Shown here piece after piece: positions 7,536-52,887 of a stretch of DNA of 64,000 nt (positions are counted from its first letter, which is position 1; each line of letters begins with the position of its first letter). Made by a program: the position numbers and the translations under genes. A model generated the notes under the pieces. The model was not told the DNA's origin and searched no databases. It was given only the letters and a program-made list of their open reading frames with translations. The DNA is taken from NCBI GenBank assembly GCA_016875215.1, contig VGRX01000001.1, positions 11,312 to 75,311 of the forward strand, read 5' to 3'. Source of the stretch: Deltaproteobacteria bacterium. Lineage in GTDB: Bacteria; Myxococcota_A; UBA9042; CAIXZC01.

Positions 7536-7570
7536 AACGGCCGCTGGTGCGGGGATGAAGACGTACCGTG

Positions 7571-18271: not shown

Positions 18272-18420
18272 CGACATGTCGGGGTTCCATCCATGAGCCG
18301 GCGGTGCGGGCAACCCGACGGCCGATGCGGCAGGACAGACCGTGGGTGCGGGCAACCCAACGGCTGATGCACCGAGACGGGCCGGCGGTGCGGGCAACCC
18401 GACGGCCGGCGAGGGTGCGG
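18272..18420 (+). repeat. composite REP/BIME-like cluster A2 (direct repeat of A1)
   Basis: The leader cgacatgtcggggttccatccatgagcc plus three REP units match 12433-12600. Confidence 0.65.
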
Positions 18421-21953: not shown

Positions 21954-21993
21954 GGTGTTCCGTTCTCCCGTTCCGGTTGCCTCTGCCTGAGGT

Positions 21994-24900
21994 CTATGGC
22001 GCCACGTACAGCCACAGATACCGGTTACCCCCGATGTTCTGGGCAAAGCAGTTGGAAGCTTCCCAGCCGCAACTGTTGTTGACGGTAACGTTGGTGCTGC
22101 TTTCGCCGCACCCCCACGGGCCACCCCACCAGCTCGAGGAGGTGTGGGGGTGATTTCCGTCCGCGTAGATTTCGTTGATCCAGCCGGAGAAGTTCGAGTT
22201 GTAGATGAGCCCGTTGACCTGGTAGGCCCCGAGCCCGTCCCTGAACACGTTCTTGTTCACGTCGAGATAGCGGTAGCTGTTCGTATTCGCTCCGCAGACG
22301 ATCCGGATCTTGTTGTAGGCCGCTCCCGTGCAGTCATTGCCCCAGGCCTTTGGGATGTCGTCGCCGCCTGGCTTGTCCAGGTAGCCCTCGCACTGAATCC
22401 AGGCCCCTCCGAAGACCGGCCCGAGCTCACCGGAGAAGCCGGGCACGGTCGGCGTCGTGAGGGTGCAGTTCGGCTCGCAGCCGTCTCCGGCCACGGCGTT
22501 TCCATCGTCGCAAGCTTCGCCGGCCTCGACCTTGCCGTTCCCACAGCACGGGGTGAAGGGGGTGTACTTGCACCCAGTGGCCGGGTCGCAGCTGTCGGTC
22601 GTGCACTTGTCGCCATCGATGCAGGTCACGGCCGGTCCCGGTTTGCACGCGCCCCCGCCGCAGACGTCACCCGCGGTGCATGCGCTGCCGTCGTTGCAGG
22701 CCGCTGTATTGGGGGCGTACGCGCAGCCGGTCTTCGGGTCGCATGAATCGTCGGTGCAGCCGTTCCCGTCGTTGCAGGCGAGGTTGCCGGACCCGGTGCA
22801 TTTGCCATCTCCGCACGCGTCCGTCACGGTGCATGCGTTGCCGTCATTGCAGGGGACCGTGTTGTTGGCGTGCTTGCACCCGGTCTTGGGCTCGCAGGTA
22901 TCCGTGGTGCACACGTTTGAGTCATCACAGCTCACCCAGGCCGTCCCGACGCAGGTTCCGTCCTGGCAGGTATCACCCGTTGTGCACGCGTTCTTGTCAT
23001 CGCAACCACCTGCGACCGGCGTGTGGGTGCACCCTGCCTTGGGATCGCAGGCATCGGTGGTGCAGGAGTTGGCATCGTCGCAGCTCAGCCACTGGGCGGG
23101 CTTGCAGCCGCCGGCCGTGCACTTGTCACCGACGGTGCAGATGTCACCGTCGTCGCAGGGGGCCGAATTGAGCGTGTGAATGCACCCCTTTGCCGGATCG
23201 CACGAGTCGTCCGTGCACGGGGTGTCATCACCGCACGGCAGGGTTCCGGTCCCAACGCACTTGCCCGCACTGCATGTGTCCGTGGGAGTACACTTGTTGC
23301 CGTCGTCGCACGCAGCGGTATTGGGCGTGTGCGTGCACCCTCCCTTGGGATCGCAGGCATCCGTGGTGCACGGGTTCCCGTCGTCACAGCCGAGGGCCGG
23401 TCCTCCCTTGCACTGTCCGGCCACACAGGCATCGGGCCCTGTGCACGGGTTCCCGTCGTTGCACGGGGCCGTGTTCTCCAGGTGGATGCACCCCTTGGCG
23501 GGGTCGCACGAGTCGTCGGTGCAGACGTTGGAATCGCCGCACTCAAGCGCCACGCTGCCCTTGCACGCCCCGCCCTTGCACAGGTCCGACTTGGTGCACA
23601 CGTTCCCGTCGTCGCAGGATGCAGCGTTGTGATTGTGCACGCACCCAAGATCGGGATCGCACGAGTCGTCGGTGCACACGTTCCCGTCATCGCAAGGCAG
23701 CAGGGACGAGCCCTGGCACAGCCCGCTCTTGCACGCGTCCCCGGTCGAGCACTTGTTCCCGTCGTTGCACGGGACCTGATTGAACACGAACTTGCAGCCG
23801 AGCACGGGCTCACACGAGTCGTCGGTGCACACATTCCCGTCGTTGCACGACTGCACCCCTGTCGCCACGCAGGCCCCAAGCTTGCACTGGTCGCCGGTCG
23901 TACACTCGTTCGAGTCGCTGCACGGAAGCTGGTTGGGCTGGTGCACGCACCCTTTGAGCGGCTCGCACGAATCGTCGGTGCACGGATTGCCGTCATTGCA
24001 ATCCTGCGCTTTTCCCGACGCGCAGCTTCCCCCTCCGCACTGGTCCCCCACGGTACACGGGTTGCCATCCTCGCACGCTGCCGTGTTGGGAGCGAACTTG
24101 CACCCGGTCGCTGCATCGCAGGAGTCGTCCGTGCAGGGATTCCCGTCGTTGCAGTTGACCGGCTTGCCTCCGGCGCAGGTCCCGTCGGCGCACGTCTCCG
24201 AATGGGTGCAGGCGCTGCCGTCGCTGCAGGCCTTCCCCTCGGCAGCCGGGACGAACGAGCATTCCCCGGTCAGCGGATTGCACGAAGGAGCCAGGCACTC
24301 CGCCCCCACTCCCTTGGGCGCGGCGCACTCCACGACCGTCTTGAGGTCCACGATGCACTTGTGAGGGAGCTGCTTCGTGTCGCACACGAGCTTGCCGTTG
24401 CAGACGTCACCGTCCTCCAGCACCAGACAGTCGGCAGTGGTCTTGCAGTCGCAGGCGACAGGGTAGCCCCCACACTTGCCCTGGCTGCACACGTCGCTGA
24501 CCGTGCATGGGTCGCCGTCATCGCAATCCGCCTTGTTGAACGAGTACTTGCACCCGCCCGTCGGATCGCACTCGTCCGTGGTGCAGACGTTGCTGTCGTT
24601 GCAGTTGATGCCTGTCCCGAGGCATTCGCCCGACTCACAGTGGTCGGCCAGCGTGCAAACGTCGCCGTCGTCGCATGACGTCCCCGAAAGCGGCTCGTGC
24701 ACGCATCCCGCTTCAGGATCGCATTCGTCCTTCGTGCATCCATTCCCATCATCGCACGAGACGTCGTCCACCTTGTCGTTGCAGTCGTCGTCGACGCCGT
24801 TGCACTCCTCCGCCTGCGGTTCCGGAGCATCGCACGCGGACAAGCCGTCCGGACCGCACGTCCGCTCCCCCTGGCACTGCCCGAGGTCGTTCGCCGCCAG

Positions 24901-25542
24901 GCACAGCGTGGAAAGACCCAGTGCGATCGACTTCGTCGAGCACGAGCAGACCCCGCTGTCGGACACGCACTGCTTCAGCACCGTGCCTTCCGCAGTCACG
25001 GCATCCTTGCACGAGAAACCGAAGGGGCATGCGCCGTTGCACGGCGCCCCGCAGAACAGCCCTGCCGCACCATAGTCCACGCATACGTCCTCCAGGCCGT
25101 TGGGGGACTTGCAGTCCGCACTCGTCTTGCACGGCCGGCACAGGTGGGTGTACGGCGACACGCATGCGAACTGCAGATCCGGTCCGCCCGTCGAGATCTG
25201 CTGGCAGGTCCACCCTTGCGGACACTCCTCGACGCAGGTATCGGAGCACACGTTGTCCCCCATGTGCTCCACGCAGATGCCGGACAGGCAGTCCTTGCCG
25301 TCCGCGCACGGTTCCAGGAAGCACCCCGTTCCGGGCACGCATCCGGAACCCGTGTCGAGCCATTCCTCGACCGTCACGTCCGGGGGCTCGACCGAGGTCT
25401 CCGCCTGGTCGACGCCCACCGTCTCCACCACGGACTCAGCCTGCGCCTGGTCACTCGTGTCCTCCCCGCCGGTCACTACGGTGCCGCCGCCGGCACAGGA
25501 CGCCACAACTCCGCTCACCGCCAGAATCCACAGTCGCCTCAT
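21994..25542 (-). CDS. giant secreted Cys-rich repeat protein A (1182 aa): EGF-like N-terminal module, about 25 CxDGNxCTxDxCDPxxGC repeats, CCGNG Cys-rich repeat, unique about 230 aa C-terminal domain
   Basis: Signal peptide MRRLWILAVSGVVASCAGG. Highly regular about 38 aa repeats. Paralogue of 37748-41590. Confidence 0.8.
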   Translation of the reverse strand: MRRLWILAVSGVVASCAGGGTVVTGGEDTSDQAQAESVVETVGVDQAETSVEPPDVTVEEWLDTGSGCVPGTGCFLEPCADGKDCLSGICVEHMGDNVCSDTCVEECPQGWTCQQISTGGPDLQFACVSPYTHLCRPCKTSADCKSPNGLEDVCVDYGAAGLFCGAPCNGACPFGFSCKDAVTAEGTVLKQCVSDSGVCSCSTKSIALGLSTLCLAANDLGQCQGERTCGPDGLSACDAPEPQAEECNGVDDDCNDKVDDVSCDDGNGCTKDECDPEAGCVHEPLSGTSCDDGDVCTLADHCESGECLGTGINCNDSNVCTTDECDPTGGCKYSFNKADCDDGDPCTVSDVCSQGKCGGYPVACDCKTTADCLVLEDGDVCNGKLVCDTKQLPHKCIVDLKTVVECAAPKGVGAECLAPSCNPLTGECSFVPAAEGKACSDGSACTHSETCADGTCAGGKPVNCNDGNPCTDDSCDAATGCKFAPNTAACEDGNPCTVGDQCGGGSCASGKAQDCNDGNPCTDDSCEPLKGCVHQPNQLPCSDSNECTTGDQCKLGACVATGVQSCNDGNVCTDDSCEPVLGCKFVFNQVPCNDGNKCSTGDACKSGLCQGSSLLPCDDGNVCTDDSCDPDLGCVHNHNAASCDDGNVCTKSDLCKGGACKGSVALECGDSNVCTDDSCDPAKGCIHLENTAPCNDGNPCTGPDACVAGQCKGGPALGCDDGNPCTTDACDPKGGCTHTPNTAACDDGNKCTPTDTCSAGKCVGTGTLPCGDDTPCTDDSCDPAKGCIHTLNSAPCDDGDICTVGDKCTAGGCKPAQWLSCDDANSCTTDACDPKAGCTHTPVAGGCDDKNACTTGDTCQDGTCVGTAWVSCDDSNVCTTDTCEPKTGCKHANNTVPCNDGNACTVTDACGDGKCTGSGNLACNDGNGCTDDSCDPKTGCAYAPNTAACNDGSACTAGDVCGGGACKPGPAVTCIDGDKCTTDSCDPATGCKYTPFTPCCGNGKVEAGEACDDGNAVAGDGCEPNCTLTTPTVPGFSGELGPVFGGAWIQCEGYLDKPGGDDIPKAWGNDCTGAAYNKIRIVCGANTNSYRYLDVNKNVFRDGLGAYQVNGLIYNSNFSGWINEIYADGNHPHTSSSWWGGPWGCGESSTNVTVNNSCGWEASNCFAQNIGGNRYLWLYVAP

Positions 25543-25713
25543 AGTCCGAACCTCCGACTTGGAAGATCAGTAACGGGGCCTATGTTACCACGGTCCCGGT
25601 GCGGACGGAAATGGCGGCAGCGCATGAGGCCGTCCCGTGTCCGGCGCGCTTGCAAAACCGACGCCCCGAATGCAGGATCTTCCCTCGGCGTCGTGTGTCG
25701 AGGTGCAGCAGCA

Positions 25714-27573
25714 ATGGCGAGTCCGGACCCGAAGAAACCCACTGTTCAGGCCTTCCGCCCCGAGGTTCTCGCCCCCGGCGGCAGCCTGGACGCGATCGAG
25801 GCTGCAGTCAACGCCGGGGCCGATGCCGTCTACGTCGGCGTGGGCTTGCTCAACGCCAGGACCCGCGCCGCCAACCTCACGGTCGAACAGCTTCCCGGCG
25901 TGGTGGATCTGGCCCATTCCCGAGGTGCCGCAATTCACGTGGCACTCAATGTCCCGGTAACTCCGACGACCCTGCCCGAGGCCGTCCGCGTCCTGGCGGC
26001 CTCCTGGCTGTCCGGCGCGGATGCGGTCATTCTTCGCGACCCGATCCTGATCGGGCTGGCTGCCCGGGAGCTGCCCGGTCTGGCCCTTCATGCGAGCACG
26101 CAGATGGGGATCCTGGGGCCCGCAGCCGCGAAACGGGCACATGGTCTGGGCTGCACCCGGGTGATCCTGCCCCGAGAGCTGTCGGCCGCGGACATCCGCC
26201 GCATCCGCAAGGCCGTGCCCGACCTGGAGCTGGAGGCCTTCTTCTTCGGCGCTCTGTGCTTCGGGGTATCGGGGCGTTGCCTGCTCGGCGAGGCGGTTGC
26301 CGGCCGCTCCGGAAACCACGGGAGCTGCGCTCAACCGTGTCGCCTGGAGTACTTCGCTGCAGACGGTGCTCCGCTCGGCCGGATCTTCAGCATGCGGGAC
26401 CTCGACCTGTTTCCCCGTATCCGGGAGTTGGTCGATGCCGGCGTGTCCAGCCTCAAGATCGAAGGGAGATTGAAGTCCCCGGCATGGGTTGCGTGTGTGA
26501 CCTCTTACGCGCGCACGGCCTCCCGGAACTGGCGGACGGGCGGCCTGGCTCCGGACGAGCTGGCGGCCTTCCACCGGGACGTGGCGGTCCTGTTCTGCCG
26601 GCCCCGCACCTCCGCGTTCTTCGACGGTTCCACCGACGTTGCGCTGCTCACCTGTCCGGCAAGCTCGGGCCAGGCCGGGCTGGCGATCGAACGCTTCGAT
26701 ACCATGCCCCGACCGCGCAGCCCGACCGAGCGGGCCGGCCGCGTTCTCGGTGAATCGGTCGAGCGCACACGGGAGCGCTGGCAGCGAACCGGAGCCTCCG
26801 GGGCTCTTCCGGGGATCGCGCTCCGCTTCGTCACTCCTGTCGACCTGGCGCTGCGTGACGGCCTGCTCGTCACGACCGCGCTGTCGGGTCCGGGGCAATC
26901 CGAGGCGCTTCCGATCGTCGAGTTGGCGGACGAGAATGGACGGCCGGCAGGCCGGATCCCCGCCGGCAGGGTGGCGGTGGTCACCCTGCCGCTCGACAGG
27001 CCGCCTCTGACCGTCGCCATCCACAGCGCCAACTCCGTCGAGGCCCGCTTCCCGAAGGGGAATCTCCGCCTGTCCCAGGCCAGCCGCAACGGTGAGCTGC
27101 CCGCCCCGAGCGTCACCCGCGTCGTGATGGCCCAAGACCGCATCTTCCTGACCGGGGCGATCGGCCGCTTCCGTACCTCGGCTGAGCTGCCCGTTGCCAC
27201 CGAGCCGGCCCGCAACCAGGGGATGACGCCCGGGATGATGCAGCGCTACTTTCCGGAGGCCGAAGCCGACGTGGCTCCCGATCTGTACGCCAATCCCACG
27301 GAGCTCAAGGCCGTGCGGCGCGCCTTTGCCGCGCAGGGCAGGGAATCCTATCGTGCGGAGCTCGAACGGCTGGCCCGTCGTCTCCTCGATGATGTCCTTC
27401 AAAGCGAGCCCGTATTCGCGCAGGACGATGCCTCGCTGCTCGCCCGAGGTCCGGCCTGCGTATCCCGGGTGACCGGCCTGCCCCCGGGCGAGGTCCGCAC
27501 CTCGGGAGGGGACCGGTTCGTGGTCGAGCCGACCCGCAGGGGCACGGTCGTGCGGGCCGTGCGCCGCCCCTGA
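25714..27573 (+). CDS. peptidase U32 family protein
   Basis: U32 signature EAFFFGALCFGVSGRCLLG and downstream GSCAQPCR. About 619 aa. Confidence 0.8.
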   Translation: MASPDPKKPTVQAFRPEVLAPGGSLDAIEAAVNAGADAVYVGVGLLNARTRAANLTVEQLPGVVDLAHSRGAAIHVALNVPVTPTTLPEAVRVLAASWLSGADAVILRDPILIGLAARELPGLALHASTQMGILGPAAAKRAHGLGCTRVILPRELSAADIRRIRKAVPDLELEAFFFGALCFGVSGRCLLGEAVAGRSGNHGSCAQPCRLEYFAADGAPLGRIFSMRDLDLFPRIRELVDAGVSSLKIEGRLKSPAWVACVTSYARTASRNWRTGGLAPDELAAFHRDVAVLFCRPRTSAFFDGSTDVALLTCPASSGQAGLAIERFDTMPRPRSPTERAGRVLGESVERTRERWQRTGASGALPGIALRFVTPVDLALRDGLLVTTALSGPGQSEALPIVELADENGRPAGRIPAGRVAVVTLPLDRPPLTVAIHSANSVEARFPKGNLRLSQASRNGELPAPSVTRVVMAQDRIFLTGAIGRFRTSAELPVATEPARNQGMTPGMMQRYFPEAEADVAPDLYANPTELKAVRRAFAAQGRESYRAELERLARRLLDDVLQSEPVFAQDDASLLARGPACVSRVTGLPPGEVRTSGGDRFVVEPTRRGTVVRAVRRP

Positions 27574-27780
27574 TCTGCAGAGGATCCGCTGCGGGTCGCG
27601 GTTCCGCAGAACTGACGGTGGATTTGGGGGGCCCCGCGCATTTGACACGCGCCCCGTCCCGTGCTTGACTCAGGGGGAGGGAAGTTCGGTCCGGTCGGGG
27701 GCCCCGCAATGCCCGCCGGAGAAGCCGTGAGCTTCGCTCGACGGGTGGTCGTGGTCAGACTCGTCAGAGGGGGGTGGTTC

Positions 27781-28692
27781 ATGTCCAAGTCCGCTCCGGC
27801 AGCTTCGCCGCTCCAGGGAATGTCGAGGCTTGCGATTGCAGCATTCGGCGTCGTGCTGCTCCTGTGCGTGGCACTGACGATCGCTGTCGTGAAGCTGAGG
27901 GGGAAGTGCGGGGAGTTGGAGCACAGCCACAACGAGCTGACGGCCTGTCGCGACCGGAATGCCAGGCTGGACGACCAGTGCGCAGCGACCGGGCGTGACC
28001 TGGAGGAGACCCGCAAGACGCTGGCTGCCAAGGGGGCCGACCTGGCCGCAACGTCCCAGCGTCTCGCCGATTGCACGAGGCGGCTGGCGGAGGCTCAGGA
28101 TGGTCTTCTGGGGGCCGCTCGACTTCGCGAGGAGCTGGAAGGCCGGAAGTCCGAGCTCGAGAAGGAAATCGACCGGCTGCGAAGCGGCAGCGTCCTTCTG
28201 GAGGCGGAGAACCGCTCCCTCGATAAGCAGTGGAAGACGGCCTTTGCCCAGCTCGACGGGTACGCGGGCTCTCTGGCGAAGCATCCGGGCATCCTCGAGC
28301 AGCTCCCGTTGGGGCTTGCGGTTCGTCCGAGGGCCATCGCCATGCCGCTCGGAAAAGGCAAGGGGTTCCACTTCAAGCTGTGGGTCGAGATCTCGGTGGC
28401 CCGCCAGGCCGATGTGAAGCGGGTCGTCTACCTCCTCAACCACCCGACCATCGTCGAGTCCCGGCGGCTGGAATCCTCGGATCCCACGAACAGCTTCGAG
28501 GTCCAGTACTACGGCCCCCAGGCAGCGGACCGGGTGCTCGTCATGGTGCAGGATGCTCGGGGAGGCCGGCACAGGCTGGCTCTCGACATGCATGCGGATC
28601 TCACGAAGCCCCAGGTGGATTTCGATACCGGCGCCGAGCCTGTACCGCCCGAGAAGGTCCCCCTCATCGACAAGCCCCGGCTCGAGCCATAG
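27781..28692 (+). CDS. membrane-anchored coiled-coil protein, hypothetical
   Basis: N-terminal TM (LAIAAFGVVLLLCVALTIAVV), about 150 aa heptad-rich region, globular C-terminal domain. Confidence 0.5.
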   Translation: MSKSAPAASPLQGMSRLAIAAFGVVLLLCVALTIAVVKLRGKCGELEHSHNELTACRDRNARLDDQCAATGRDLEETRKTLAAKGADLAATSQRLADCTRRLAEAQDGLLGAARLREELEGRKSELEKEIDRLRSGSVLLEAENRSLDKQWKTAFAQLDGYAGSLAKHPGILEQLPLGLAVRPRAIAMPLGKGKGFHFKLWVEISVARQADVKRVVYLLNHPTIVESRRLESSDPTNSFEVQYYGPQAADRVLVMVQDARGGRHRLALDMHADLTKPQVDFDTGAEPVPPEKVPLIDKPRLEP

Positions 28693-28821
28693 GAGGCTGC
28701 CCGGAATTACTTCGCCGATAGCATCCCCGTCCGCTCCGGGTCCTCGGCCCTTTCTTGCCTCGCGGGCGCGCAGAATCTATAATGAGCACGGTCAGGCAAG
28801 CCACGCCTGCAGCAGAGGTGA

Positions 28822-30360
28822 ATGTCGATGAAAGCCGTTGTCTGGACTGCGTGGGTCATGGTCGTGCTGGCAGCGTGCTCGTTCTCCGTGAAGAAACCGG
28901 CTTTCCCGGGTGAGGACGTTGCCGACTCGGCCACCGCCGACGGGGATGGGAGCGAGGACCAGGCGGCTGAAGACCAGACCGGCGATGTTGGAACCCTGCC
29001 GGATGGCTCGGACGACGCTCGACACGATGCCCGCGCCGACGCGGTAGACGATGCCCGCGGCGACGCGATAGACGATGCCGGCAAGGACCTGGCGCCGATC
29101 GACGTGACCCGACCCGAGTGTCAGAACCATTCGGACTGCGACGACCTCGATGACTGCACCGCGGACAAGTGCGCCGCCGGGAAGTGCTTCCACGAGGAGT
29201 TCCCGGGGTGCGGGGAGTGCATCCCCGAGGGGAAGGAGTTCGAGGACCCCAACCCGGATGGCAAGTGCTGCCCTCCCTCCTTACCAATCCCGGTGAAGCA
29301 GGAGATGGGGGTCCCCTGCGCGGACCCGTTCTGCTGGCCCAACTACGACTGTGCGGAAGTCGATTGCCAGTGCTTCGTCTGCGCCCAGTGCGGCGACGGC
29401 AAGTGCAGCACGGGGGAGAACCGGTGCAACTGCCCCGAGGACTGCGAGAAGCCGTTCCCCTGCTCGGAGGCAGGAGGCAACTGCACGCCCGAACCCTTCT
29501 GTCCGGACGGCATGCTGGGCATCTCCCCGTCCGACTGCGGCGTCGACTTGTACTGCTGTCCTCCCGGCGGCGGGTGCGCCAAGGCGGGCGAGCCCCAGGG
29601 GGTGGGGCCCGAGATGATCCCCTGTTGCGACGGGCTCGCTCCGATCTCCTGGGCGGACTGGAATCCCGAGGACGGCTGCGTGGCCATTCCCGGTGACGAC
29701 ATCTGCTCCGACTGCGGCAACACCGTTTGCGACCCATGGGAGAATCCCTGCAACTGCAAGCAGGACTGCCCCGAGATCGGCCAGGAGACCTGCTCCAAGA
29801 ACGGACCCTTCTGCGCTTTCGGCGCTTACTGCCAATCCGAGCCGGGCAAGTGCGTCGATGCCACGGCTCCCGGCGCCTGCGTTCCCGTTCCGGAACAGTG
29901 CCCGCTCCTCTACTCGCCCGTCTGCGGTTGCGACGGGAAGAGCTACGGAAACGAATGTGAGATGGCCAAGGCTTCGATGTCCATGGCCTACAAGGGGGAG
30001 TGCAAGGTCGAGTGCGTCGAGGAAGGAGAGACCTTCGTGGACTTCGACCCGGCGGGCAAGTGCTGTGGCGGCCTTCCTGCCATCGAAGCGTGCAAGCCCT
30101 CAGAGGACAACAAGTCCTGCGTGTGCGACAAGGTGGCGACGCACGTCTGCGTCCATTGCGGAAACAAGATGTGCGGTCTCGGCGAGAGCTGGTGCAACTG
30201 CCCCGGGGACTGCCCCGTCCCTGCCGGCGTAACGTGCCTCACCGCCAAGGGGCAGTGCGTCCCCAAGGACCCTTTCCCCCAGTGCTTGCCCGGCTACTTC
30301 CCCCTTCCGCTGCCGGGATGCAACCTTCCGTTCCCGGCCGCCTGCTGCATTCCCAAGTAG
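28822..30360 (+). CDS. secreted Cys-rich lipoprotein with Kazal-type domain and DDAR-repeat linker
   Basis: Signal/lipobox VVLAACSFS. Kazal consensus CPLLYSPVCGCDGKSYGNECEMAKASMSMAYKGEC. Numerous EGF-like Cys spacings. True start may be ATG 28828. Confidence 0.65.
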   Translation: MSMKAVVWTAWVMVVLAACSFSVKKPAFPGEDVADSATADGDGSEDQAAEDQTGDVGTLPDGSDDARHDARADAVDDARGDAIDDAGKDLAPIDVTRPECQNHSDCDDLDDCTADKCAAGKCFHEEFPGCGECIPEGKEFEDPNPDGKCCPPSLPIPVKQEMGVPCADPFCWPNYDCAEVDCQCFVCAQCGDGKCSTGENRCNCPEDCEKPFPCSEAGGNCTPEPFCPDGMLGISPSDCGVDLYCCPPGGGCAKAGEPQGVGPEMIPCCDGLAPISWADWNPEDGCVAIPGDDICSDCGNTVCDPWENPCNCKQDCPEIGQETCSKNGPFCAFGAYCQSEPGKCVDATAPGACVPVPEQCPLLYSPVCGCDGKSYGNECEMAKASMSMAYKGECKVECVEEGETFVDFDPAGKCCGGLPAIEACKPSEDNKSCVCDKVATHVCVHCGNKMCGLGESWCNCPGDCPVPAGVTCLTAKGQCVPKDPFPQCLPGYFPLPLPGCNLPFPAACCIPK

Positions 30361-30370
30361 GAGGGGACGC

Positions 30371-31609
30371 ATGACTTCGCCGGTCGAGGGAGCACACCGC
30401 CCCAGCCACATGGTCCGCATCTTCCAGACGTCGACAGAGGCTGAGCGCGAGGAGGTCTTCTCGTTCCGATATCGCGTCTACGCCCTGGAGCTGCGCAAGG
30501 GGCTGTCCGGAATCGACCACGCACGCAAACGGTACGTGGATGAGCTGGACGACTGCGGCGTCCTGCTCTATGCGCGCGACATGGTCTCGGGCCAGGTCGT
30601 GGGAACGGTCCGCCGCAACGACCTGAGCAGCGGACGGCTTCCGGACAAGCTCGCTGCCCGGTTGCGCCTCGGGCCCATGATCGAGGCCTTCGGCGAAGAG
30701 CGGGTCAGCTACTCCAGCGCGTTCATGGTCGACCCGACCTTCCGGGGGAAGACGGTCGCCTCCCTCCTCGCAATGGGTTCTTACAGAGACGGCATTTGCA
30801 GGGGAATCGCCCTGGACGTCTGCATCGCGGAGCTGGGGCTCGTGCACCTGTACCACCAGCTCGGCTACCGGACCTACGAAGCCCCGTTCCGCACGTACGC
30901 GGGAGGTGGGTTGCGCGTCCCGCTCGTCCTCGCCCCCTTCGATCAGGCCTGGCTCGAGAAGGTCGAAAGCCCGTTCCGGCACCTGCTGCCTTCCGACAAG
31001 GGGGACGGCGGGGCCACGGCGGTTGCGCTCCGGGGCATCTACCCCGAGTGGCAGGACCCGGCCGTCACGCCGCTGGAGAGCCGGGCACTCTGGGCCGCCC
31101 TTGCCCACCAGGAGCCCGACGGCGCAGCGCAAACCATCTTCGACGGCTTCTCGCAGGACCAGATCCAGGACATTGTCGGCAGTGTGCCCACCGTGAGTCT
31201 CTCCCGGGGAAAACGCCTGTACCGGGGCGGCGAGCACGAGGCCGGCATGGCCTACGTCATGTCCGGGCGGCTCGGGCTCGCTCTCGAGGATTCCAACGAC
31301 CCGCACTTCGTAACGGTGCTGGGTCCGGGCCAGCTCCTCGGCGAGATGTCCGTCCTGACCGGCGGCGACCGCACCTCCACCCTCGTCGCGCTCGAGAAGA
31401 CCGAAGTGCTGCTGCTCCCCGCAAACCTCCTCGACCGGTTGGAAAAGAAGGACCTCCCCAGCGCCTACCGCATGTCGCGGAATCTGTGCTACATGCTGGC
31501 CCAGCGCCTCCACTCCATGAACATCCGGGTGCTCGGGCTCTACGACCGCGTGAAGGTCTCCAACGATGCCTTCGAGCTGACCCGGGAGAACATCCCGGAC
31601 GTCGACTGA
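30371..31609 (+). CDS. fusion protein: N-terminal LuxI/N-acyl-amino-acid-synthase-like GNAT-fold acyltransferase plus C-terminal cyclic-nucleotide-binding (cNMP) domain
   Basis: TAGGAGGGG SD. N-terminal EEVFSFRYRVYALEL...GVLLYAR resembles the autoinducer-synthase/NAS conserved block. C-terminal GQLLGEMSVLTGGDRTSTLVALEKTEVLLL is a cNMP-binding beta-roll. Confidence 0.5.
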   Translation: MTSPVEGAHRPSHMVRIFQTSTEAEREEVFSFRYRVYALELRKGLSGIDHARKRYVDELDDCGVLLYARDMVSGQVVGTVRRNDLSSGRLPDKLAARLRLGPMIEAFGEERVSYSSAFMVDPTFRGKTVASLLAMGSYRDGICRGIALDVCIAELGLVHLYHQLGYRTYEAPFRTYAGGGLRVPLVLAPFDQAWLEKVESPFRHLLPSDKGDGGATAVALRGIYPEWQDPAVTPLESRALWAALAHQEPDGAAQTIFDGFSQDQIQDIVGSVPTVSLSRGKRLYRGGEHEAGMAYVMSGRLGLALEDSNDPHFVTVLGPGQLLGEMSVLTGGDRTSTLVALEKTEVLLLPANLLDRLEKKDLPSAYRMSRNLCYMLAQRLHSMNIRVLGLYDRVKVSNDAFELTRENIPDVD

Positions 31610-31613
31610 CGCG

Positions 31614-34238: not shown

Positions 34239-34241
34239 CTC

Positions 34242-36515
34242 ATGCTACGCAATGCAGCGATCCCGGTGTGCATCCTTGCTCTCTCGGCCTGTTCCGGCAA
34301 ATCGGACCTGCCCGATTCCGAAACCGTGGGGGCTGACTCGGCAATGACCGACGCTACCGCGGATCTCACCCTGCCGGACCTCGTTCCGGAAGAGACGGCA
34401 GCCGACCGCGCCTCGGACCCCATCGATCCGCCGGACAGGGCCGTCCCTCCGCTGCCCTCCACGGTCGGCGAGGATCTGGACCTGCAGATTCCTCGCACGC
34501 TCGAATCCTCGTACGTGCTTCCCGACGAGTGGTACGGGGCGCTGGAGTCCATGGGGCTTGCGCTCGACAAGCTCTTCATGCCGGACATCGGGCTCACCGC
34601 CGACTGGGACTTCAGCCGCCTGCACTGGACGGACACGATCCGTCACCAGGGGCAGCTCGCACCCACGTTCGCCTACATGGTCATCGAGGATGTGAATGAT
34701 GCCTTCGATGCCGACGACGTCACCCTGGCCCGCGAGCTGCTCGTCGCCCAGAACACCTACAACACCCGGGATTCCTTCGTGGTGAGCCGCTTCGACAAGG
34801 CGGTGACGCTCCTTTCCGAAGACGGTGTCCTGATGGAGGCGCTGCACCAGTTCTGCATCCGGCCCGGGGTCGCCGGCGAGTGGTCGGGGCCGACGTGCGG
34901 GGAGCAGGAGGCGGACGTCGCCGCTGCAGCGGCCCTCGTGCCGCTGGAGCAGCAGGTCGCCCTCGCCCAGGCGATCTACGGCCTGCTGGCCGCGGTAGAG
35001 CTGCGCCAGGAGGCCCTGCTGGCCAAGGGGAAGATGACCATGGACGACTGGGCCGTGCAGCACTCCAAGATCGTGAACGGCGGCACACCATACGACTCAT
35101 CGGTGCTCGACGGGGCTCATCCGGGCTTCGACTTCGAGCAGATGTCACGGGCGGCGCAGCTCGCGGTGCGATCCGTGGAAAGCCTCCGAGCCGCCCTCAC
35201 CGGCACCGACCCTGTCCCCGGCGCTTCGTTCGAGCTTGTCGGCCCGCTCGGTCGCATCGCAGTGGACCTGACCGACCAGGACAACACGTGGAAGCACGCC
35301 GACGGGTTCCTCCTCGTGGATGGCCACGGCAATGATGCGTACTACGGCCGCGTCGCGGCGAACGCAAGCATCGCCCAGCCCGTCTCCGTGGTCCTGGACC
35401 TGGAGGGGAACGACGTCTATGCACCGACCAAGAAGTGGGAGTTGAAGCAGGACTACCTGGTGGGTGCCCGGCTTCCCATGCAGGGGGCCGGGCTGTTCGG
35501 AGTCGCCATCCTGTCCGATGCGGCCGGTGACGACGACTACGGCTGCCTGACTGCGTGCCAGGGCTACGGGATCTTCGGCGTCGGCGTTCTGCTCGACCAC
35601 GGCGGGACCGACCAGTACAGGGGCTACGACTTCGCTCAGGGAGCTTCGGAGTTCGGGTACGGGCTGCTGGTCGATCGGGGACAGGGGAACGACAGCTACG
35701 AGACGCTCCAGCACAGCCAGGGCTACGGCGGCCCACGTGGGATCGGATGGCTCGTGGACGAGGGGGGGGACGACCAGTACGTCGCCATCGCGGAGCCGAT
35801 CATCTTCGACTGGGCCGGAGAAGGGACCAACTTCTCCGGCTCGCAGGGATTCGCCTTCGGGTTCCGGGGGGGGCCCTACTGGTCCGGCGGCCTCGGAGCG
35901 CTATTCGACCTGGCTGGAAACGATACCTATCAGTGCGCGGTCATGTGCCTCGGCTTCGGCTACTTCTTCGGCACCGGGCTCTTCTTCGACCAGGCCGGAA
36001 ACGACACCTACGTCAACACGCACAAGTACACCCTCGGCTCCGCCACCCACCAGTCCGTCGGGCTCTTCGTCGATGGCGAGGGGAAGGACTCCTACGCCCT
36101 CATCGGAGACGATGAAGCCATCGGGCTCGGCTACGACCACGGCGTCGCCTACCACCTCGACCGAGGGGATCAGGATGACACCTACACGGTCGAGAACATC
36201 GGCGATTTCACCCTCGGATTCGCTCGTCACCCCGCGATCGGAACCCTCATCAACGAGGGGGGAAACGACCACTACGACATCGCCGGCACCGGCGAGGTCA
36301 CCTGCGGCCGGAGCTGGGTCGACCCGGACGACCGCAAAGGCGCCCTCGCCAAGATCATCACACTGGCCGTCTTCCTCGACCTGGGCGGTACCGGCGACAT
36401 CTACGACATCCCCCGCGACGAGGTCGGCAACGGGAAGAGCTGGCACCAGACCGCACCGCTCGGCGGCGGTTGGACCTCTGACCTCGACTTCGCCTGGGGA
36501 CAGGACAGCCAGTAG
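34242..36515 (+). CDS. lipoprotein with about 12 G(N/D/T)DxY beta-helix-like repeats, hypothetical
   Basis: Lipobox ILALSACSGKS; GGAGGTGA SD; start overlaps the hrpB stop. Periodic GNDVY/GDDDY/GTDQY/GNDSY/GDDQY/GNDTY motifs. Confidence 0.6.
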   Translation: MLRNAAIPVCILALSACSGKSDLPDSETVGADSAMTDATADLTLPDLVPEETAADRASDPIDPPDRAVPPLPSTVGEDLDLQIPRTLESSYVLPDEWYGALESMGLALDKLFMPDIGLTADWDFSRLHWTDTIRHQGQLAPTFAYMVIEDVNDAFDADDVTLARELLVAQNTYNTRDSFVVSRFDKAVTLLSEDGVLMEALHQFCIRPGVAGEWSGPTCGEQEADVAAAAALVPLEQQVALAQAIYGLLAAVELRQEALLAKGKMTMDDWAVQHSKIVNGGTPYDSSVLDGAHPGFDFEQMSRAAQLAVRSVESLRAALTGTDPVPGASFELVGPLGRIAVDLTDQDNTWKHADGFLLVDGHGNDAYYGRVAANASIAQPVSVVLDLEGNDVYAPTKKWELKQDYLVGARLPMQGAGLFGVAILSDAAGDDDYGCLTACQGYGIFGVGVLLDHGGTDQYRGYDFAQGASEFGYGLLVDRGQGNDSYETLQHSQGYGGPRGIGWLVDEGGDDQYVAIAEPIIFDWAGEGTNFSGSQGFAFGFRGGPYWSGGLGALFDLAGNDTYQCAVMCLGFGYFFGTGLFFDQAGNDTYVNTHKYTLGSATHQSVGLFVDGEGKDSYALIGDDEAIGLGYDHGVAYHLDRGDQDDTYTVENIGDFTLGFARHPAIGTLINEGGNDHYDIAGTGEVTCGRSWVDPDDRKGALAKIITLAVFLDLGGTGDIYDIPRDEVGNGKSWHQTAPLGGGWTSDLDFAWGQDSQ

Positions 36516-36575
36516 GGGTGGTGCCGCGGTTCGGGGCGAAGCCCACCGGCCGTCATGTCTTGGCCGAAAAGTGGG

Positions 36576-36657
36576 GGCGGTGCGCCCGCGGCGTGATGGG
36601 TCCAGGCTCAGCCTGGCGGTGCGCCTGCGGCGTGATGGGTCCAGGCTCAGCCTGGGT
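36576..36657 (+). terminator. tandem duplicated about 40 bp near-palindromic hairpin between convergent genes (putative bidirectional terminator)
   Basis: gcgccYgcggcgtgatgggtccaggctcagcctgg occurs twice; ccaggctcagcctgg is a dyad. Confidence 0.4.
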
Positions 36658-37555
36658 TCTTCCGCTTCCGCCTCCAGCGGGCGAGACGCAGCAGGCCGTA
36701 GCCGAGCCCGCCGAGGACCAGCAGCCACGGAAGCGCGGCCAGCGCGAGGATGCTGCCCACCTTGATCGCATCCCCCAGTGCCTTCAGCGAGTCCATGAAC
36801 TTGTCGCCGAGCTCCTGGAAGTACGTCCGCTCGACCGGCGGCACGAAGTCGGCCTGAACCGAGATGGTAAGCGTCAGCGTGGAGAATGCTACGCGGTCCT
36901 GGAGCACCTTGAACTGAGCGGTCAGCGTCTCGATCTGCTCGCGGACCCTGGCCAGCTCCCGCTCCACCTCCACGATGTCCTTCAGCTCCCTGGCGCTGGT
37001 CTCCAGGTGACCCAGGAGACGCTGCTCCACCTTCTTCTGGTTGGACAGGCGGGCATCGAGATCGACGTACTCGAAGGTCACGTCCTCGATGTTCATGGAC
37101 TCATTGGTGTAGCTGCCGATGGTCTTGACTTCGCCGACGAATTCATCGAAGCGGTCGGCAGGGATCTTGAGGGTGTACGTCATCTGCCGGACCTCGCTGG
37201 GAGCCAGGTACCGGGCGTGGGGGATCCAGGCTTCGGCCTGCTTGCCCGCGACGTAGCCGTCGTACTTCGTCACCAGCTCGGCAAGCTTCTCCTGCGCCTT
37301 GCCCGCCTCTCCCACGATGAGCGTCAGCGCTCCGGTCTTGACCAGGATGCGCCCCTGGACGGCCGGCCGGGACGGCTCCGCTGCTTCGGCCATCCTCCCG
37401 GCAGAGATCTGTTTGGCCTCGTCGCCGAAGCTGGCTCCCTGCTTGGTCGGCAGCTCCATCGGCCCCCTGCCCTGCTCCAGTTTGGCGCACCCGGCTGCCA
37501 CGAGCAGCGCCGCTGCCACAGCCATCCTCGAAACGAACCGGAGAGTCCCGTTCAT
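36647..37555 (-). CDS. DUF4349-like lipoprotein with C-terminal TM anchor
   Basis: Signal/lipobox AALLVAAGCAK; coiled-coil middle; C-terminal hydrophobic helix and RRKRK tail. Confidence 0.5.
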   Translation of the reverse strand: MNGTLRFVSRMAVAAALLVAAGCAKLEQGRGPMELPTKQGASFGDEAKQISAGRMAEAAEPSRPAVQGRILVKTGALTLIVGEAGKAQEKLAELVTKYDGYVAGKQAEAWIPHARYLAPSEVRQMTYTLKIPADRFDEFVGEVKTIGSYTNESMNIEDVTFEYVDLDARLSNQKKVEQRLLGHLETSARELKDIVEVERELARVREQIETLTAQFKVLQDRVAFSTLTLTISVQADFVPPVERTYFQELGDKFMDSLKALGDAIKVGSILALAALPWLLVLGGLGYGLLRLARWRRKRKNPG

Positions 37556-37747
37556 CTGCCACCTCGCTGTTGGGGCTCGGCATCCCGCCGAACGCAGGTC
37601 GGTCACCGGCCCATCCTACCACCAGTACGGGCCCTGCGAAAGCGTCCCGCCACACCGTCGTGCACCCCCCGCGGATCGTCGGTGCTTTCGGGCAGGGACG
37701 ATCCGTGCTACCATCTGCGGCGGTGGATTCGAATGGGAAGGTCAACG

Positions 37748-40700
37748 ATGAACCGAAAGTGCCTGATGGGATTGGCGGGGCTCCTGGTAGCGTGCTCCGG
37801 CGGAGGGCAGACGCTGCAACCGGACGTACGGGACGTTGCGGACGTGCGCCAGGAGGAGGCCGCAGTGGAGACCGCGACGCCCGCGGAAGTCGACGTGGCG
37901 CCGGTGGATGTGCCTCCGGATCCCGGGGTTCCTGAGACCATCGAGGAGACGACCCCGGCGTGCCAGCCGGGAAGCGGGTGCTTCCTCGACCCGTGTGCCG
38001 ACAGCGGTGATTGCGTGATGGGGCCGTGTGTGGAGCACCTTGGCGGCAAGGTCTGCTCCCAGACCTGCATCGAGGAATGCCCCGGAGGCTGGACGTGCAA
38101 GCAGCTTGCCGGCGAGGGCCGCGACCTGGTATTCGCCTGCGTCTCGCCGTTCACGCACCTGTGCCGTCCCTGCGCGTCCGGGGCCGACTGCAAGTCCGAG
38201 ACCGGCGTCGAGGACGTCTGCGTGATCTACGGCGATGAGGGCAGCTTCTGCGGTGCGGATTGCCAGGATATCCCCTGTCCGCCGGGGTACTCGTGCGTGG
38301 ATTCGGTGACCACCGAGGGGTTCGCCAGCAAGCAGTGCAAGGCGGACGTCGGCCTGTGCGGCTGCTCGGAGCTTTCCCGCAAGCTTGGGCTGTCCACGCC
38401 CTGCGTGGTGACCAACGCGCACGGGACGTGCAAGGGGCAGCGCACGTGCACCGGCCAGGGGCTGTCCCCGTGCAGCGCGCCGGCTCCGGCTCTCGAAGTC
38501 TGCAACGGCCTCGACGATGATTGCGACGGTACGATCGACGGAGAGATCTGCGACGACGGCGATGCATGCACCAAGGACTCCTGCGTGGCCGAGACGGGCT
38601 GTCAGCACGAGCCGCTCACCGGGACCTCCTGCGACGACGGCGACGTCTGCACGCTGGCCGATCACTGCGACGACGGGACGTGCACCGGGTCGGGAATCGA
38701 CTGCGACGACGGCAATCTCTGCACCAGCGACTCGTGCGACCCGACCGGGGGATGCGTGTACACCTTCAACAATACCGCCTGCGACGACTCCGACCCGTGC
38801 ACCGTGGGCGATTCCTGCAAGGAGGGAAGCTGTCAGGGTACCTCCGTCCCCTGTGACTGCCAGGACGACTCGGATTGTGCCAAGCTCGAGGACGGCAACC
38901 TGTGCAACGGGACCCTCTTCTGCGACGTCGAAGGCTTCCCCCAGAAGTGTGCGGTGAAGCCCACGAGCATCATCGAGTGCCCCGCCCCCTCGGGCATCGA
39001 TGCCCCCTGCCTGGTGCCGCTCTGCGACCCGTTCAACGGCCAGTGCTCGTTCGCCGCGGCCAACGACGGGAAGTCGTGCGACGACGGCAAGATCTGCACC
39101 ACCGGGAGCCATTGCGTCGCGGGTACCTGCGCGGGTGGAATCCCCCTCAACTGCGAGGACGGCAACCTCTGCACCGACGACTCGTGCGACCCGGTCGAAG
39201 GGTGCATCCACCTTCCGAACTCGCTCCCGTGCGAAGACGGCAATCCCTGCACCATGAAGGACACGTGCGAAGATGCTGCCTGCTCGCCCGGCCAGCCGGC
39301 CAACTGCAACGACGGCAACCCGTGCACCGATGATTCGTGCGACCCGACCTCGGGGTGCATCCACCAGGCCAACGCGGCACCGTGCGACGACGGGAACGTG
39401 TGCACCACCGGAGACAAGTGCCAGAACAAGGGATGCAAGGGAATCGGCATTCTCCCGTGCAGTGACGGCAACCTCTGCACCGACGACTCGTGCGACCCGA
39501 CTGCGGGCTGCCAGCATGCCAACAACAGCCTGCCTTGCAGCGACGGCAACCCCTGCACTCCCAAGGATGTCTGCATGGACGGCGCCTGCGTCGGCATGGG
39601 AGTCAAGGACTGCGGCGACGGCAACCCCTGCACCGACGATGCCTGCCACCCCACGCAGGGATGCCTCCACCAACCCAACACCGCTGCCTGCAACGACAAC
39701 AACCTCTGCACCACGAGCGACGTGTGCGCCAACGGTGCCTGCACCGGGACGGGCCTTCTCGCGTGCAGCGACTCGAACCACTGCACTGACGATTCCTGCA
39801 ACCCCGCCAAGGGGTGCATCTACACCCCGAACAAGACCTCGTGCGATGACGGCAACGAGTGCACCCTGGGAGATGTCTGCAAGGGCGGCCAGTGCTCGGC
39901 CGGGACCATGAAGGACTGCGAGGACGGCAACCCCTGCACCAAGGACTCCTGCGTGCCGCTCACCGGGTGCATGCACGTTCCAGGAGCCGGGCTCTGCGAT
40001 GACGGCAATCCCTGCACCATCGCAGACAAGTGCGCGGCAGGTACCTGCCAGCCCGGCGCTCCGAAGATCTGCGACGACGGTAACTTCTGCACCGACGACT
40101 CCTGCGGCAAGGAGGGAATCTGCCAGTTCGTGCCCAACAAGGTCGCCTGCAACGACGCCAACTCCTGCACCAACGACGATCTGTGCGCAGATGGGAAATG
40201 CGCCGGAACCCCCATCGACTGCGACGACGGCAATCCGTGCACCAAGGACTCCTGCGCTCCCGCCACCGGCTGCGTGTACACCTTCAGCACCGCACCGTGC
40301 GACGACGGCAACCTGTGCACGACCAAGGATGTCTGCGACAAAGGGGCCTGCACGGGCTCCGTCGCCCTGCCGTGCGACGACGCAAATCCCTGCACCGACG
40401 ACTCCTGCGATCCCAAGGTCGGCTGCCTGCATAAGCCCAACCAGGCTCAGTGCGACGACGCAAACGCCTGCACGCTGACCGACCAGTGCAGCGCAGGATG
40501 GTGCCAGGGCCTGCCGCTCGGCTGCGACGACGACGACCCCTGCACGACCGACTCGTGCAACCCCGCCACCGGCTGCGTCCACACCACCAACACCGCCCCC
40601 TGCGACGACGGGAACCTCTGCACCGTGAACGACACCTGCCAGGAAGGCATGTGCGTGGGCGGGAAGAACGTCTCGTGCAACGATTCCAACGATTGCACCG

Positions 40701-41590
40701 ACGACTCGTGCGATCCCGCCAAGGGGTGCACCCACTCCAACAACAACGGAGCATGCACCGACGCCAACTTCTGCACCGAGGGCGATTCGTGTGTCGGCGG
40801 CAACTGCATCCCCGGCTCGGCCGTCACCTGCAACGACGCCGAGGTGTGCACCACCGATGCCTGCCTGCCCAAGTCGGGTTGCTCCTTCACCCCCGTCCCC
40901 AACTGCTGCCACAACGATGCCGAATGCAACGACGGCAACCCGGCCACCACCGACAAGTGCAGCAACAACCAGTGCAAGCACCTTACCGACCCGGGGCTCC
41001 CGCACAACAGCGCTCCGTTCTCCCCCGAGTACACCAGCAACGGCGGCTGCGGCGACTACTCCAAGTGGTACACCCGCAGCTTCGGCCAGATGACGTTCTC
41101 CCAGTGCGAGGCCAAGGCAAACCTCACCGGCGCCCAGTATGTCGGAGCACCCAACCTGTACGACTACACCGCCCCCTACGCCTCCAGCGAGAGGTGGGTC
41201 GGCGACAAGGACGTCACCAACGGCTACGTCAGCGCCGGCGGGTGGGACTCCGTCGGAACCCGCAACAAGAACGACAACAGCCTCTGCGTCCTCGGCTACG
41301 CCAACGGCAACGCCCCCGGCAACTCCACACTGACCGATTCCAAGGTCGTGAACGGCAGAACCTACCAGTACAAGGACTTCGGCACCATCAGCGAGAAGAC
41401 CTGCTACGACTACTGCCGCGAGTACGGCGCCCGCCCCCTCAATCCTCAGTACTTCGGCGTCTCGGGCGTCACCCACATGGTCGAGAACCACAGCTGCCAC
41501 GGAAGCGTGCAGTACAACGGCAACGGCTACACAACCGACGGCAGCGGTGCCCACACGTACCGCTGCTTCATCGGCTACTACTCGGAATGA
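37748..41590 (+). CDS. giant secreted Cys-rich repeat protein B (1280 aa), paralogue of protein A with a different about 270 aa C-terminal domain
   Basis: Lipobox LLVACSGGG. N-terminal module about 60% identical to protein A. About 27 CxDGNxCTxDxCDPxxGC repeats. The long ORF-track N-terminal extension from 36518 is rejected. Confidence 0.8.
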   Translation: MNRKCLMGLAGLLVACSGGGQTLQPDVRDVADVRQEEAAVETATPAEVDVAPVDVPPDPGVPETIEETTPACQPGSGCFLDPCADSGDCVMGPCVEHLGGKVCSQTCIEECPGGWTCKQLAGEGRDLVFACVSPFTHLCRPCASGADCKSETGVEDVCVIYGDEGSFCGADCQDIPCPPGYSCVDSVTTEGFASKQCKADVGLCGCSELSRKLGLSTPCVVTNAHGTCKGQRTCTGQGLSPCSAPAPALEVCNGLDDDCDGTIDGEICDDGDACTKDSCVAETGCQHEPLTGTSCDDGDVCTLADHCDDGTCTGSGIDCDDGNLCTSDSCDPTGGCVYTFNNTACDDSDPCTVGDSCKEGSCQGTSVPCDCQDDSDCAKLEDGNLCNGTLFCDVEGFPQKCAVKPTSIIECPAPSGIDAPCLVPLCDPFNGQCSFAAANDGKSCDDGKICTTGSHCVAGTCAGGIPLNCEDGNLCTDDSCDPVEGCIHLPNSLPCEDGNPCTMKDTCEDAACSPGQPANCNDGNPCTDDSCDPTSGCIHQANAAPCDDGNVCTTGDKCQNKGCKGIGILPCSDGNLCTDDSCDPTAGCQHANNSLPCSDGNPCTPKDVCMDGACVGMGVKDCGDGNPCTDDACHPTQGCLHQPNTAACNDNNLCTTSDVCANGACTGTGLLACSDSNHCTDDSCNPAKGCIYTPNKTSCDDGNECTLGDVCKGGQCSAGTMKDCEDGNPCTKDSCVPLTGCMHVPGAGLCDDGNPCTIADKCAAGTCQPGAPKICDDGNFCTDDSCGKEGICQFVPNKVACNDANSCTNDDLCADGKCAGTPIDCDDGNPCTKDSCAPATGCVYTFSTAPCDDGNLCTTKDVCDKGACTGSVALPCDDANPCTDDSCDPKVGCLHKPNQAQCDDANACTLTDQCSAGWCQGLPLGCDDDDPCTTDSCNPATGCVHTTNTAPCDDGNLCTVNDTCQEGMCVGGKNVSCNDSNDCTDDSCDPAKGCTHSNNNGACTDANFCTEGDSCVGGNCIPGSAVTCNDAEVCTTDACLPKSGCSFTPVPNCCHNDAECNDGNPATTDKCSNNQCKHLTDPGLPHNSAPFSPEYTSNGGCGDYSKWYTRSFGQMTFSQCEAKANLTGAQYVGAPNLYDYTAPYASSERWVGDKDVTNGYVSAGGWDSVGTRNKNDNSLCVLGYANGNAPGNSTLTDSKVVNGRTYQYKDFGTISEKTCYDYCREYGARPLNPQYFGVSGVTHMVENHSCHGSVQYNGNGYTTDGSGAHTYRCFIGYYSE

Positions 41591-52867: not shown

Positions 52868-52887
52868 GCGCCCGGCGCGGCAGCAAG

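Follow-up and report, generated by a model that had tools for sequence, protein, structure and literature searches.

Paralogous cysteine-rich lipoproteins with different C-terminal tips, candidate stalked adhesins or receptors of Myxococcota

The window analyzed here, a 64,000-nucleotide stretch of contig VGRX01000001.1 from Deltaproteobacteria bacterium (assembly GCA_016875215.1; Myxococcota_A), carries two very large genes in opposite orientation, called A and B in this work, which code for predicted lipoproteins of 1182 and 1280 amino acids (aa). The two proteins share an N-terminal head and a long cysteine-rich stalk, and they end in unrelated tails. We consider it reasonably likely that A and B are stalked cell-surface adhesins or receptors with different ligand-binding tips, which arose by an old duplication and domain shuffling and were each inherited vertically thereafter, and that their inverted placement is accidental. 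The pair is of a known kind, the cysteine-rich repeat surface proteins of myxobacteria. Both open reading frames (ORFs) lie, with the orientations and lengths given in a preliminary description of the sequence, exactly where that description had placed them. Their parts are as follows; GC3 stands for the G+C content at third codon positions.

21994..25542, minus strand: gene A, a 1182-aa lipoprotein made up of head, 13-pair Dicty_CTDC stalk, one myxo_disulf repeat and A tail (ORF; GC3 of 0.84)
25495..25542, minus strand: signal peptide of A with lipobox (VAS, then C16), from inspection of the translation; the orthologue in metagenome contig L083 has LLS, then C, at the equivalent site
24229..25347, minus strand: conserved head of A, aa 66-438, with a ~195-aa Cys-rich module that ends in CNGVDDDC, followed by two CTDC pairs and a 75-aa insert
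22549..24228, minus strand: stalk of A, aa 439-998, with 11 further 51-aa double units (repeat parsing, lag-51 autocorrelation and Pfam Dicty_CTDC)
22459..22548, minus strand: single TIGR02232 myxo_disulf repeat of A, aa 999-1028 (NCBIfam, 37.5 bits against a cutoff of 20.8)
21997..22458, minus strand: tail of A, aa 1029-1182, an unnamed C-terminal domain of ~150 aa with 6 Cys
37748..41590, plus strand: gene B, a 1280-aa lipoprotein made up of head, 14-pair Dicty_CTDC stalk and B tail (ORF; GC3 of 0.88)
37748..37795, plus strand: signal peptide of B with lipobox (LVA, then C16), from inspection of the translation
37958..39076, plus strand: conserved head of B, aa 71-443, 58.5% identical to the A head over 398 aa
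39077..40906, plus strand: stalk of B, aa 444-1053, with 12 further 51-aa double units, against 11 in A (repeat parsing)
40982..41587, plus strand: tail of B, aa 1079-1280, a C-type-lectin-like domain according to a moderate-confidence model

The G+C content of the window is 64 to 70%, and the GC3 values of A and B are those expected for real genes in it. By inspection, both proteins start with short leaders, basic and hydrophobic (MRRLWILAVSGVVAS followed by C in A and MNRKCLMGLAGLLVA followed by C in B), that fit the lipobox pattern [LVI][ASTVI][GAS]C at Cys16, so that the signal peptide or lipobox attributed to them earlier was recovered in each. An acidic low-complexity linker of ~50 aa follows the lipobox in both. 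Cysteine makes up ~13% of the residues (153 in A and 163 in B), which bears out their description as cysteine rich.

BLASTP aligned A and B end to end up to the tails, with a score of 988 bits and 49% identity over 1203 columns. The two are thus paralogs with a shared scaffold, as had been proposed. Outside the tails, identity is 55 to 59% over ~1000 aa, with 59% in the module (aa 66-262), 59% in the first two pairs and the insert, and 55% in the stalk. It is 40% in the last Cys motif and 25% in the tails, which is the noise level. Divergence begins at residue 999 of A and residue 1054 of B and therefore covers the last 184 and 227 aa, rather than the 230 to 270 aa first reported, and the globular tails proper are 154 and 202 aa long. 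That the C-terminal parts are unrelated held good, however: comparison of the two tails by profile-profile alignment gave a probability of homology of 0.1%. When each tail was searched against the window by tblastn, it matched only itself and not the other, and no orphan tail cassette was detected. B also gave no match to TIGR02232 in NCBIfam at the cutoff of 20.8 bits, and its residues 1054-1078 form only a degenerate Cys motif.

The motif CxDGNxCTxDxCDPxxGC noticed in the preliminary description is real and corresponds to the Pfam family Dicty_CTDC (PF00526). This family matched A over 13 stretches with 262.7 bits and B over 14 stretches with 274.8 bits, the gathering threshold for the whole-protein score being 27 bits. 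The repeat period had been estimated at 38 aa, but it is in fact 51 aa. Autocorrelation peaked at a lag of 51 (0.41 in A and 0.34 in B) and again at ~102, with values of at most 0.22 off the multiples of 51. Each unit consists of a 26-aa CTDC half, CxDGNxCTxDxCDPxxGCxHxPN, and a 25-aa half, CxDGNxCTxxDxCxxGxCxG. There are 26 such halves (13 pairs) in A and 28 (14 pairs) in B, and the extra pair of B is the sole 51-aa gap in the BLASTP alignment. In both proteins, two pairs precede and the remaining pairs follow a conserved Cys-rich insert of 75 aa. A double unit holds 8 Cys, which probably form 4 disulfides. Tandem Repeats Finder (TRF) reported no DNA-level tandem repeat within A or B, because the units are too diverged in DNA for the array to be detected.

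The N-terminal region had been taken for an EGF-like module of about 100 aa. It is considerably longer, ~400 aa at 59% identity between A and B, and Pfam and NCBIfam gave no EGF match in it. No other family was found for the head in Pfam, NCBIfam or PDB, even at E≤10 and with profiles, and its sole match in the E≤10 search was a short MopE-like CNGxDDDC motif at the end of the head.

To place the pair in a family, a profile of the head module was searched against 1.84 billion representatives clustered at 50% identity. It retrieved 5977 proteins at E≤1e-3, of which 1510 also passed E≤1e-30. Among GTDB species representatives, 93 loci carried the head module, with up to five paralogs per metagenome-assembled genome (MAG); 80 of these loci were kept, from 55 assemblies that are nearly all MAGs of uncultured Myxococcota. 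Members with a database name are listed as 'hypothetical protein' or 'cysteine-rich repeat protein'. The A head is 58.5% identical to that of B, 59% to that of P0093, a protein of another organism, and 84% to that of the L083 orthologue. As it is no closer to B than to P0093, the duplication that gave rise to A and B must be old. Together, the profile searches point to A and B as ancient paralogs in a very large family that has no name and is nearly confined to Myxococcota.

The C-terminal variants to be expected among relatives are indeed numerous. Among the 199 full-length members with the head, CTDC half-units number 10 or more in 76 proteins and no more than two in 110. Clustering of the final 180 aa gave 134 clusters, including 112 singletons, and none of them is the A or the B tail. 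Pfam searches on the 53 tails of members with a CTDC stalk found DUF4215, right-handed beta-helix, Laminin_G_3, ALK/LTK glycine-rich, FG-GAP, CBM96 and DUF1554 domains, with further matches to Endostatin, RCC1, FGE-sulfatase, Lcl_C, BNR, LDL-receptor class B and PKD. No toxin domain was among the Pfam matches of these 53 tails. By their domain content, the tips of the family appear to be binding or structural modules. The ALK/LTK-type glycine-rich domain (PF12810) ends several of the CTDC-stalk relatives (L001, L004, L002/P0049 and others). This fold is otherwise known from animal receptor kinases.

The two tails of the pair gave nothing significant in Pfam, NCBIfam or PDB, also with permissive E-values and with profiles. 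The structural model of the B tail suggests, with moderate confidence, a C-type-lectin-like fold. Its best structural match is the C-type-lectin tip of Bd2740 from Bdellovibrio, with 7% sequence identity. Homologues of the B tail occur, again at the C terminus, on another lipoprotein stalk built of Stig1-like CGxCG repeats (L082 and P0011). The A tail was found at 37 metagenome loci; it forms the C-terminal end in 36 of the 36 ORFs extracted, and its 6 Cys are invariant. It occurs behind a CTDC stalk with head, behind DUF4215 repeats and in a lipoprotein with ~95-aa repeats (L081). It was also observed as a stand-alone protein of ~190 aa with a signal peptide, in contigs of 32 to 38% G+C (L091 and L093; P0005 and P0006). 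Since the A tail exists by itself in low-G+C organisms, it is an autonomous domain that has spread across phyla. Two of the lipoprotein genes mentioned, that at L081 2747-4943 with the A tail and that at L082 148-1382 with the B tail, are split by an apparent assembly frameshift, and at both sites gene calling yields two proteins in place of one.

We investigated the stability of the architecture in an orthologous locus. A metagenome scan with the A-tail profile retrieved the 18-kb contig L083, which carries a true orthologue of A. The two genes are 81% identical in DNA and colinear over 3406 nucleotides (nt), with the same number of repeats. Gene order is that of the window, the A orthologue being followed by genes for an M15_4 peptidase (72% aa identity) and SurA (83% aa identity). 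Protein identity between A and its orthologue is even, with 84% in the head module, 87% in the CTDC pairs and insert, 81% in the stalk, 83% in the myxo_disulf repeat and 85% in the tail, and A is therefore not a chimera produced by crossover with B. Upstream of the A orthologue, L083 has genes for an M48 peptidase and a galactokinase instead of the U32-family gene and its neighbors that lie upstream of A in the window. Neither B nor any gene of the block between A and B is present on its 18 kb. Thus, L083 has A in the absence of both, and the bracketed arrangement is not a conserved unit.

More distant A-type genes keep the A tail at 64 to 69% identity, namely L085 (head, 63%) and L098 (head, 51%), in which 102 and 55 fewer stalk residues, respectively, align to A. 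With a tail that matches the head in conservation in L083 and is retained in L085 and L098, A appears to have been inherited vertically under purifying selection, and not assembled by cassette exchange. No orthologue of B was recovered in our searches, and tail stability is therefore documented for A only. The scans recovered no contig from the same organism, the closest A-type gene found being 81% identical in DNA, and a metagenome scan for orthologous loci with the U32 protein gave no match.

The architecture, homology, family and evolutionary pattern of A and B are documented by the sequences themselves. Beyond this, we infer surface exposure, a rigid stalk and ligand binding for both proteins, as follows. 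The N-terminal lipid on Cys16 of the lipobox would anchor the protein to the membrane. The acidic linker of ~50 aa would come next, and after it the conserved Cys-rich head of ~400 aa, close to the membrane. The 51-aa Dicty_CTDC double units would form a long stalk locked by disulfides, with a distinct globular binding domain at its far end, C-type-lectin-like in B and the unnamed 6-Cys domain in A. The tips would be held well away from the outer membrane, and they might bind a glycan or a surface structure belonging to prey, kin or matrix. The difference between the two tips would go back to an old gene duplication and domain shuffling, followed by vertical inheritance under purifying selection, and the inverted placement of the genes around a housekeeping block would be an accident of genome arrangement, not a switch.

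The genomic setting of the pair bears on that last point. A and B have their 5' ends inward and point outward around 12,205 bp, in keeping with the 12-kb block from U32 peptidase through DUF4349 that they had been said to bracket. The block carries housekeeping-type genes. Its members and the gene next to A are as follows.

25714..37606, mixed strands: intervening block, from the U32-family gene to the DUF4349 gene (Pfam and NCBIfam), not part of the protein system
25714-27573, plus strand: U32-family gene (Pfam/NCBIfam)
between the U32-family gene and the GNAT and cNMP-binding gene: two genes of unnamed family, members of the block
30371-31609, plus strand: GNAT and cNMP-binding gene (Pfam/NCBIfam)
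31614-34238, plus strand: HrpB helicase gene (Pfam/NCBIfam)
34242-36515, plus strand: gene of unnamed family, member of the block
36647-37606, minus strand: DUF4349 gene (Pfam/NCBIfam)
21096..22124, minus strand: M15_4 peptidase gene (Pfam PF13539), directly downstream of A; these are the limits of the maximal ORF, and the true start, judged from L083, is near 21960

The M15_4 gene is followed by SurA-like and UPF0047 genes, and downstream of B lies a convergent PCMT gene, 8 bp away. Among the genes called between 19 and 45 kb, Pfam and NCBIfam identified no recombinase, invertase, integrase or transposase, three of these genes being without any match. Scans of the window for tRNAs and Rfam families gave no match. 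The genes around A and B showed no synteny with the 80 GTDB loci, except for one HrpB.

The preliminary description had likened the pair to polymorphic toxins or adhesins with swappable tips and had predicted that recombination between A and B would invert the block. A toxin system would use the scaffold to deliver a variable C-terminal toxin, exchanged by recombination with silent cassettes, and would shield the producer by means of an adjacent immunity protein. The conserved N-terminal scaffold with unrelated C termini would fit such a system, and myxobacteria do use lipoprotein and teneurin-like polymorphic toxins, some of them with Dicty_CTDC in the N-terminal region. Nevertheless, we regard this as very improbable. 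Even at E≤10, Pfam, NCBIfam and PDB gave no toxin match for either tail, the model of the B tail suggests a lectin fold, and the tails of the 53 relatives carry binding or structural domains only. No small immunity-type gene lies downstream, A being followed by the M15_4 peptidase gene, as in its orthologue, and B by the convergent PCMT gene. Orphan cassettes are absent from the window by tblastn. Between A and its L083 orthologue, the only pair for which this could be compared, tail and head are conserved to the same degree (85% versus 84%), and the A tail also exists as a scaffold-free secreted protein of ~190 aa in low-G+C organisms. An invertible switch, in which recombination between A and B flips the 12-kb block and exchanges promoter and head between the two tails for phase or antigenic variation, is in our view extremely improbable. 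The geometry would allow it: the parts shared by A and B lie in inverted orientation toward the block, and a crossover would leave two intact chimeric genes. The nucleotide comparison of A and B confirmed homology, with ~70% identity over the head, but uncovered no near-identical tract, the longest exact run anywhere being 25 bp. A repeat finder returned inverted arms of at most 297 nt that are 70 to 82% complementary. RecA-dependent homologous recombination requires longer stretches of near identity, and its frequency drops sharply as sequences diverge. A and B, with their low DNA identity and short exact runs, are therefore a very poor substrate for it. A search for gene conversion between A and B found only short patches that code for the motifs, of at most 61 nt and ~90% identity, and these were out of register. 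Besides, the Pfam and NCBIfam scans of the genes called between 19 and 45 kb gave no invertase or integrase, the block holds housekeeping-type genes, and A is colinear throughout with its L083 orthologue and not chimeric, with other genes at the site of the block in L083. Thus, the observations of the preliminary description were confirmed in part, whereas its interpretation was supported in part and for the most part not. Seen over evolutionary time, 'adhesins with different tips' describes the pair fairly: the 134 tip clusters among 199 proteins, the occurrence of both tails on other stalks and the lectin-like model of the B tail support, in a weak, evolutionary sense, the idea that tips vary on a shared scaffold.

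Several points weigh against the proposal that A and B are stalked adhesins or receptors. The models of both tails are weak, with pLDDT values of 65 for B and 58 for A, from alignments of only 5 to 6 sequences, and that of A had no usable fold match. For the B tail, the top matches in Foldseek were only C-type-lectin-like domains (CTLDs) or CTLD-containing receptors, but their E-values were not significant. The B tail has no match in Pfam, Lectin_C included, and the Ca/sugar motifs EPN, QPD and WND are absent from it, as they are from Bd2740. A conserved partner gene, as a hint of machinery for export or anchoring, was not found around the family members. Whether a lipoprotein is exposed on the surface is not readable from its sequence. 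In addition, the CTDC-repeat proteins of Dictyostelium are matrix or spore-coat components, and the stalk would suit a structural role equally well. It may be that A and B are structural proteins of a matrix, a sheath or a spore coat, in which the CTDC repeats are cross-linked and the tips tie them to the cell's own exopolysaccharide. This is the main alternative and is compatible with a function in adhesion, although we think it rather unlikely. The strong Dicty_CTDC matches, the Cys content of ~13%, the lectin-like and carbohydrate-binding tips across the family, and a many-membered family lacking partner genes would all be consistent with it, and the work on TraA links cysteine-rich proteins typically to the extracellular matrix (PMC3325183). 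Nevertheless, the lipid anchor and the membrane-proximal head better fit a cell-bound receptor than a shed fiber, and a tip diversity of 134 clusters in 199 proteins is more typical of recognition repertoires. We retain adhesins or receptors as the preferred description of A and B.

Known systems offer partial precedents for such proteins. The extracellular proteins of Dictyostelium with Dicty_CTDC repeats, such as PsiA/DicA and matrix or spore-coat proteins, have the same type of repeat as A and B, and both groups are secreted and disulfide rich, with long tandem arrays. In some of the Dictyostelium proteins the repeats are joined to a lectin-like PA14 domain. A and B differ from them in being bacterial, in their N-terminal lipid anchor, in their 400-aa head without a Pfam model, and in that the putative lectin-like domain is C-terminal and is not PA14. 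TraA of Myxococcus xanthus is a surface receptor with a lectin-like domain on a stalk of Cys-rich tandem repeats, and the genome encodes paralogs of it (PMC3325183). It is a precedent for the rigid Cys-rich stalk on a myxobacterial surface receptor that we propose for A and B. Its topology is nevertheless reversed, with PA14 as the N-terminal tip and MYXO-CTERM as the C-terminal anchor, whereas A and B have an N-terminal lipobox and a C-terminal tip. Pfam and NCBIfam found no PA14, TIGR04201 or MYXO-CTERM in A or B, whose C termini, ...LYVAP and ...GYYSE, carry no hydrophobic or Arg-rich tag, and unlike TraA they have no TraB-like neighbor in the window.

The mosaic adhesive trimer (MAT) fibers of Bdellovibrio bacteriovorus also carry diverse adhesive tips on one common scaffold (PMC10769870). 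They resemble the family of A and B in forming large paralogous families of ~1000-aa proteins with diverse C-terminal tips in a delta-proteobacteria-like lineage; MAT fibers are displayed on the surface, as we would predict for A and B. MAT fibers are trimeric, several have a beta-helix and some the S74 motif, whereas the scaffold of A and B, made of Cys-rich CTDC repeats, is unrelated and gave no match to S74 or to a beta-helix family in Pfam. Polymorphic toxin systems (contact-dependent inhibition, Rhs, teneurin-like and SitA) likewise have a conserved N-terminal part and a variable C terminus. Unlike them, A and B have no toxin domain, immunity gene or orphan cassettes, and the tail is conserved between orthologues in the case of A.

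The wider interest of this work lies only in the head family and the two unnamed tip domains, as the pair itself consists of ordinary diverged paralogs inverted by chance. The head, which has no relative in Pfam, NCBIfam or PDB, defines more than 1500 clusters, almost all from uncultured Myxococcota, and is fused to Dictyostelium-type Cys-rich stalks and a very wide set of binding domains. If its members are surface adhesins, they would make up a major unexplored part of cell or surface recognition in these often predatory or social bacteria. The two tail modules, the 6-Cys A type and the putatively lectin-like B type, are both open to structural characterization. More speculatively, and we would give this a low probability, the head might be the docking or export module of an unrecognized lipoprotein surface-display system of Myxococcota, the sets of head, stalk and tip a repertoire for the recognition of prey, kin or substrate, and the A tail a new lectin-type fold. 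Such a repertoire, made up of the hundreds of combinations of head, stalk and tip, several of them per genome, would be functionally analogous to the MAT fibers of Bdellovibrio or to phage receptor-binding proteins.

Some further features of the region were noted. Genes of the M15_4 type (VanY-like, peptidoglycan peptidase) also adjoin A-type genes elsewhere, at L083 8563-9444, L084 2001-2741 and L085 147-455. From this gene order, A and the M15_4 gene may form an operon that links a stalked protein to a cell-wall hydrolase. Within the block, the gene at 30371-31609 (plus strand) codes for an unusual fusion of a GNAT acetyltransferase and a cyclic-nucleotide-binding domain, with weak matches to a Pat-type acetyltransferase and an exosortase-associated acyltransferase. 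TRF found a 39-bp tandem repeat at 36576-36655, with 2.1 copies and 97% match, between the gene at 34242-36515 and the 3' end of the DUF4349 gene. Lastly, a dispersed intergenic element resembling repetitive extragenic palindromic (REP) sequences, with a unit of ~42 bp (GGTGCGGGCAACCCGACGGCCGATGC...) in 2 to 3 tandem copies, is present at no fewer than four sites in the window, and also lies between the M15 and SurA genes of the related metagenome contig L083. Its sites are as follows.

7559-7752: REP-like element
12461-12577: REP-like element
18292-18408: REP-like element
52887-52955: REP-like element
L083 9532-9687: REP-like element between the M15 and SurA genes

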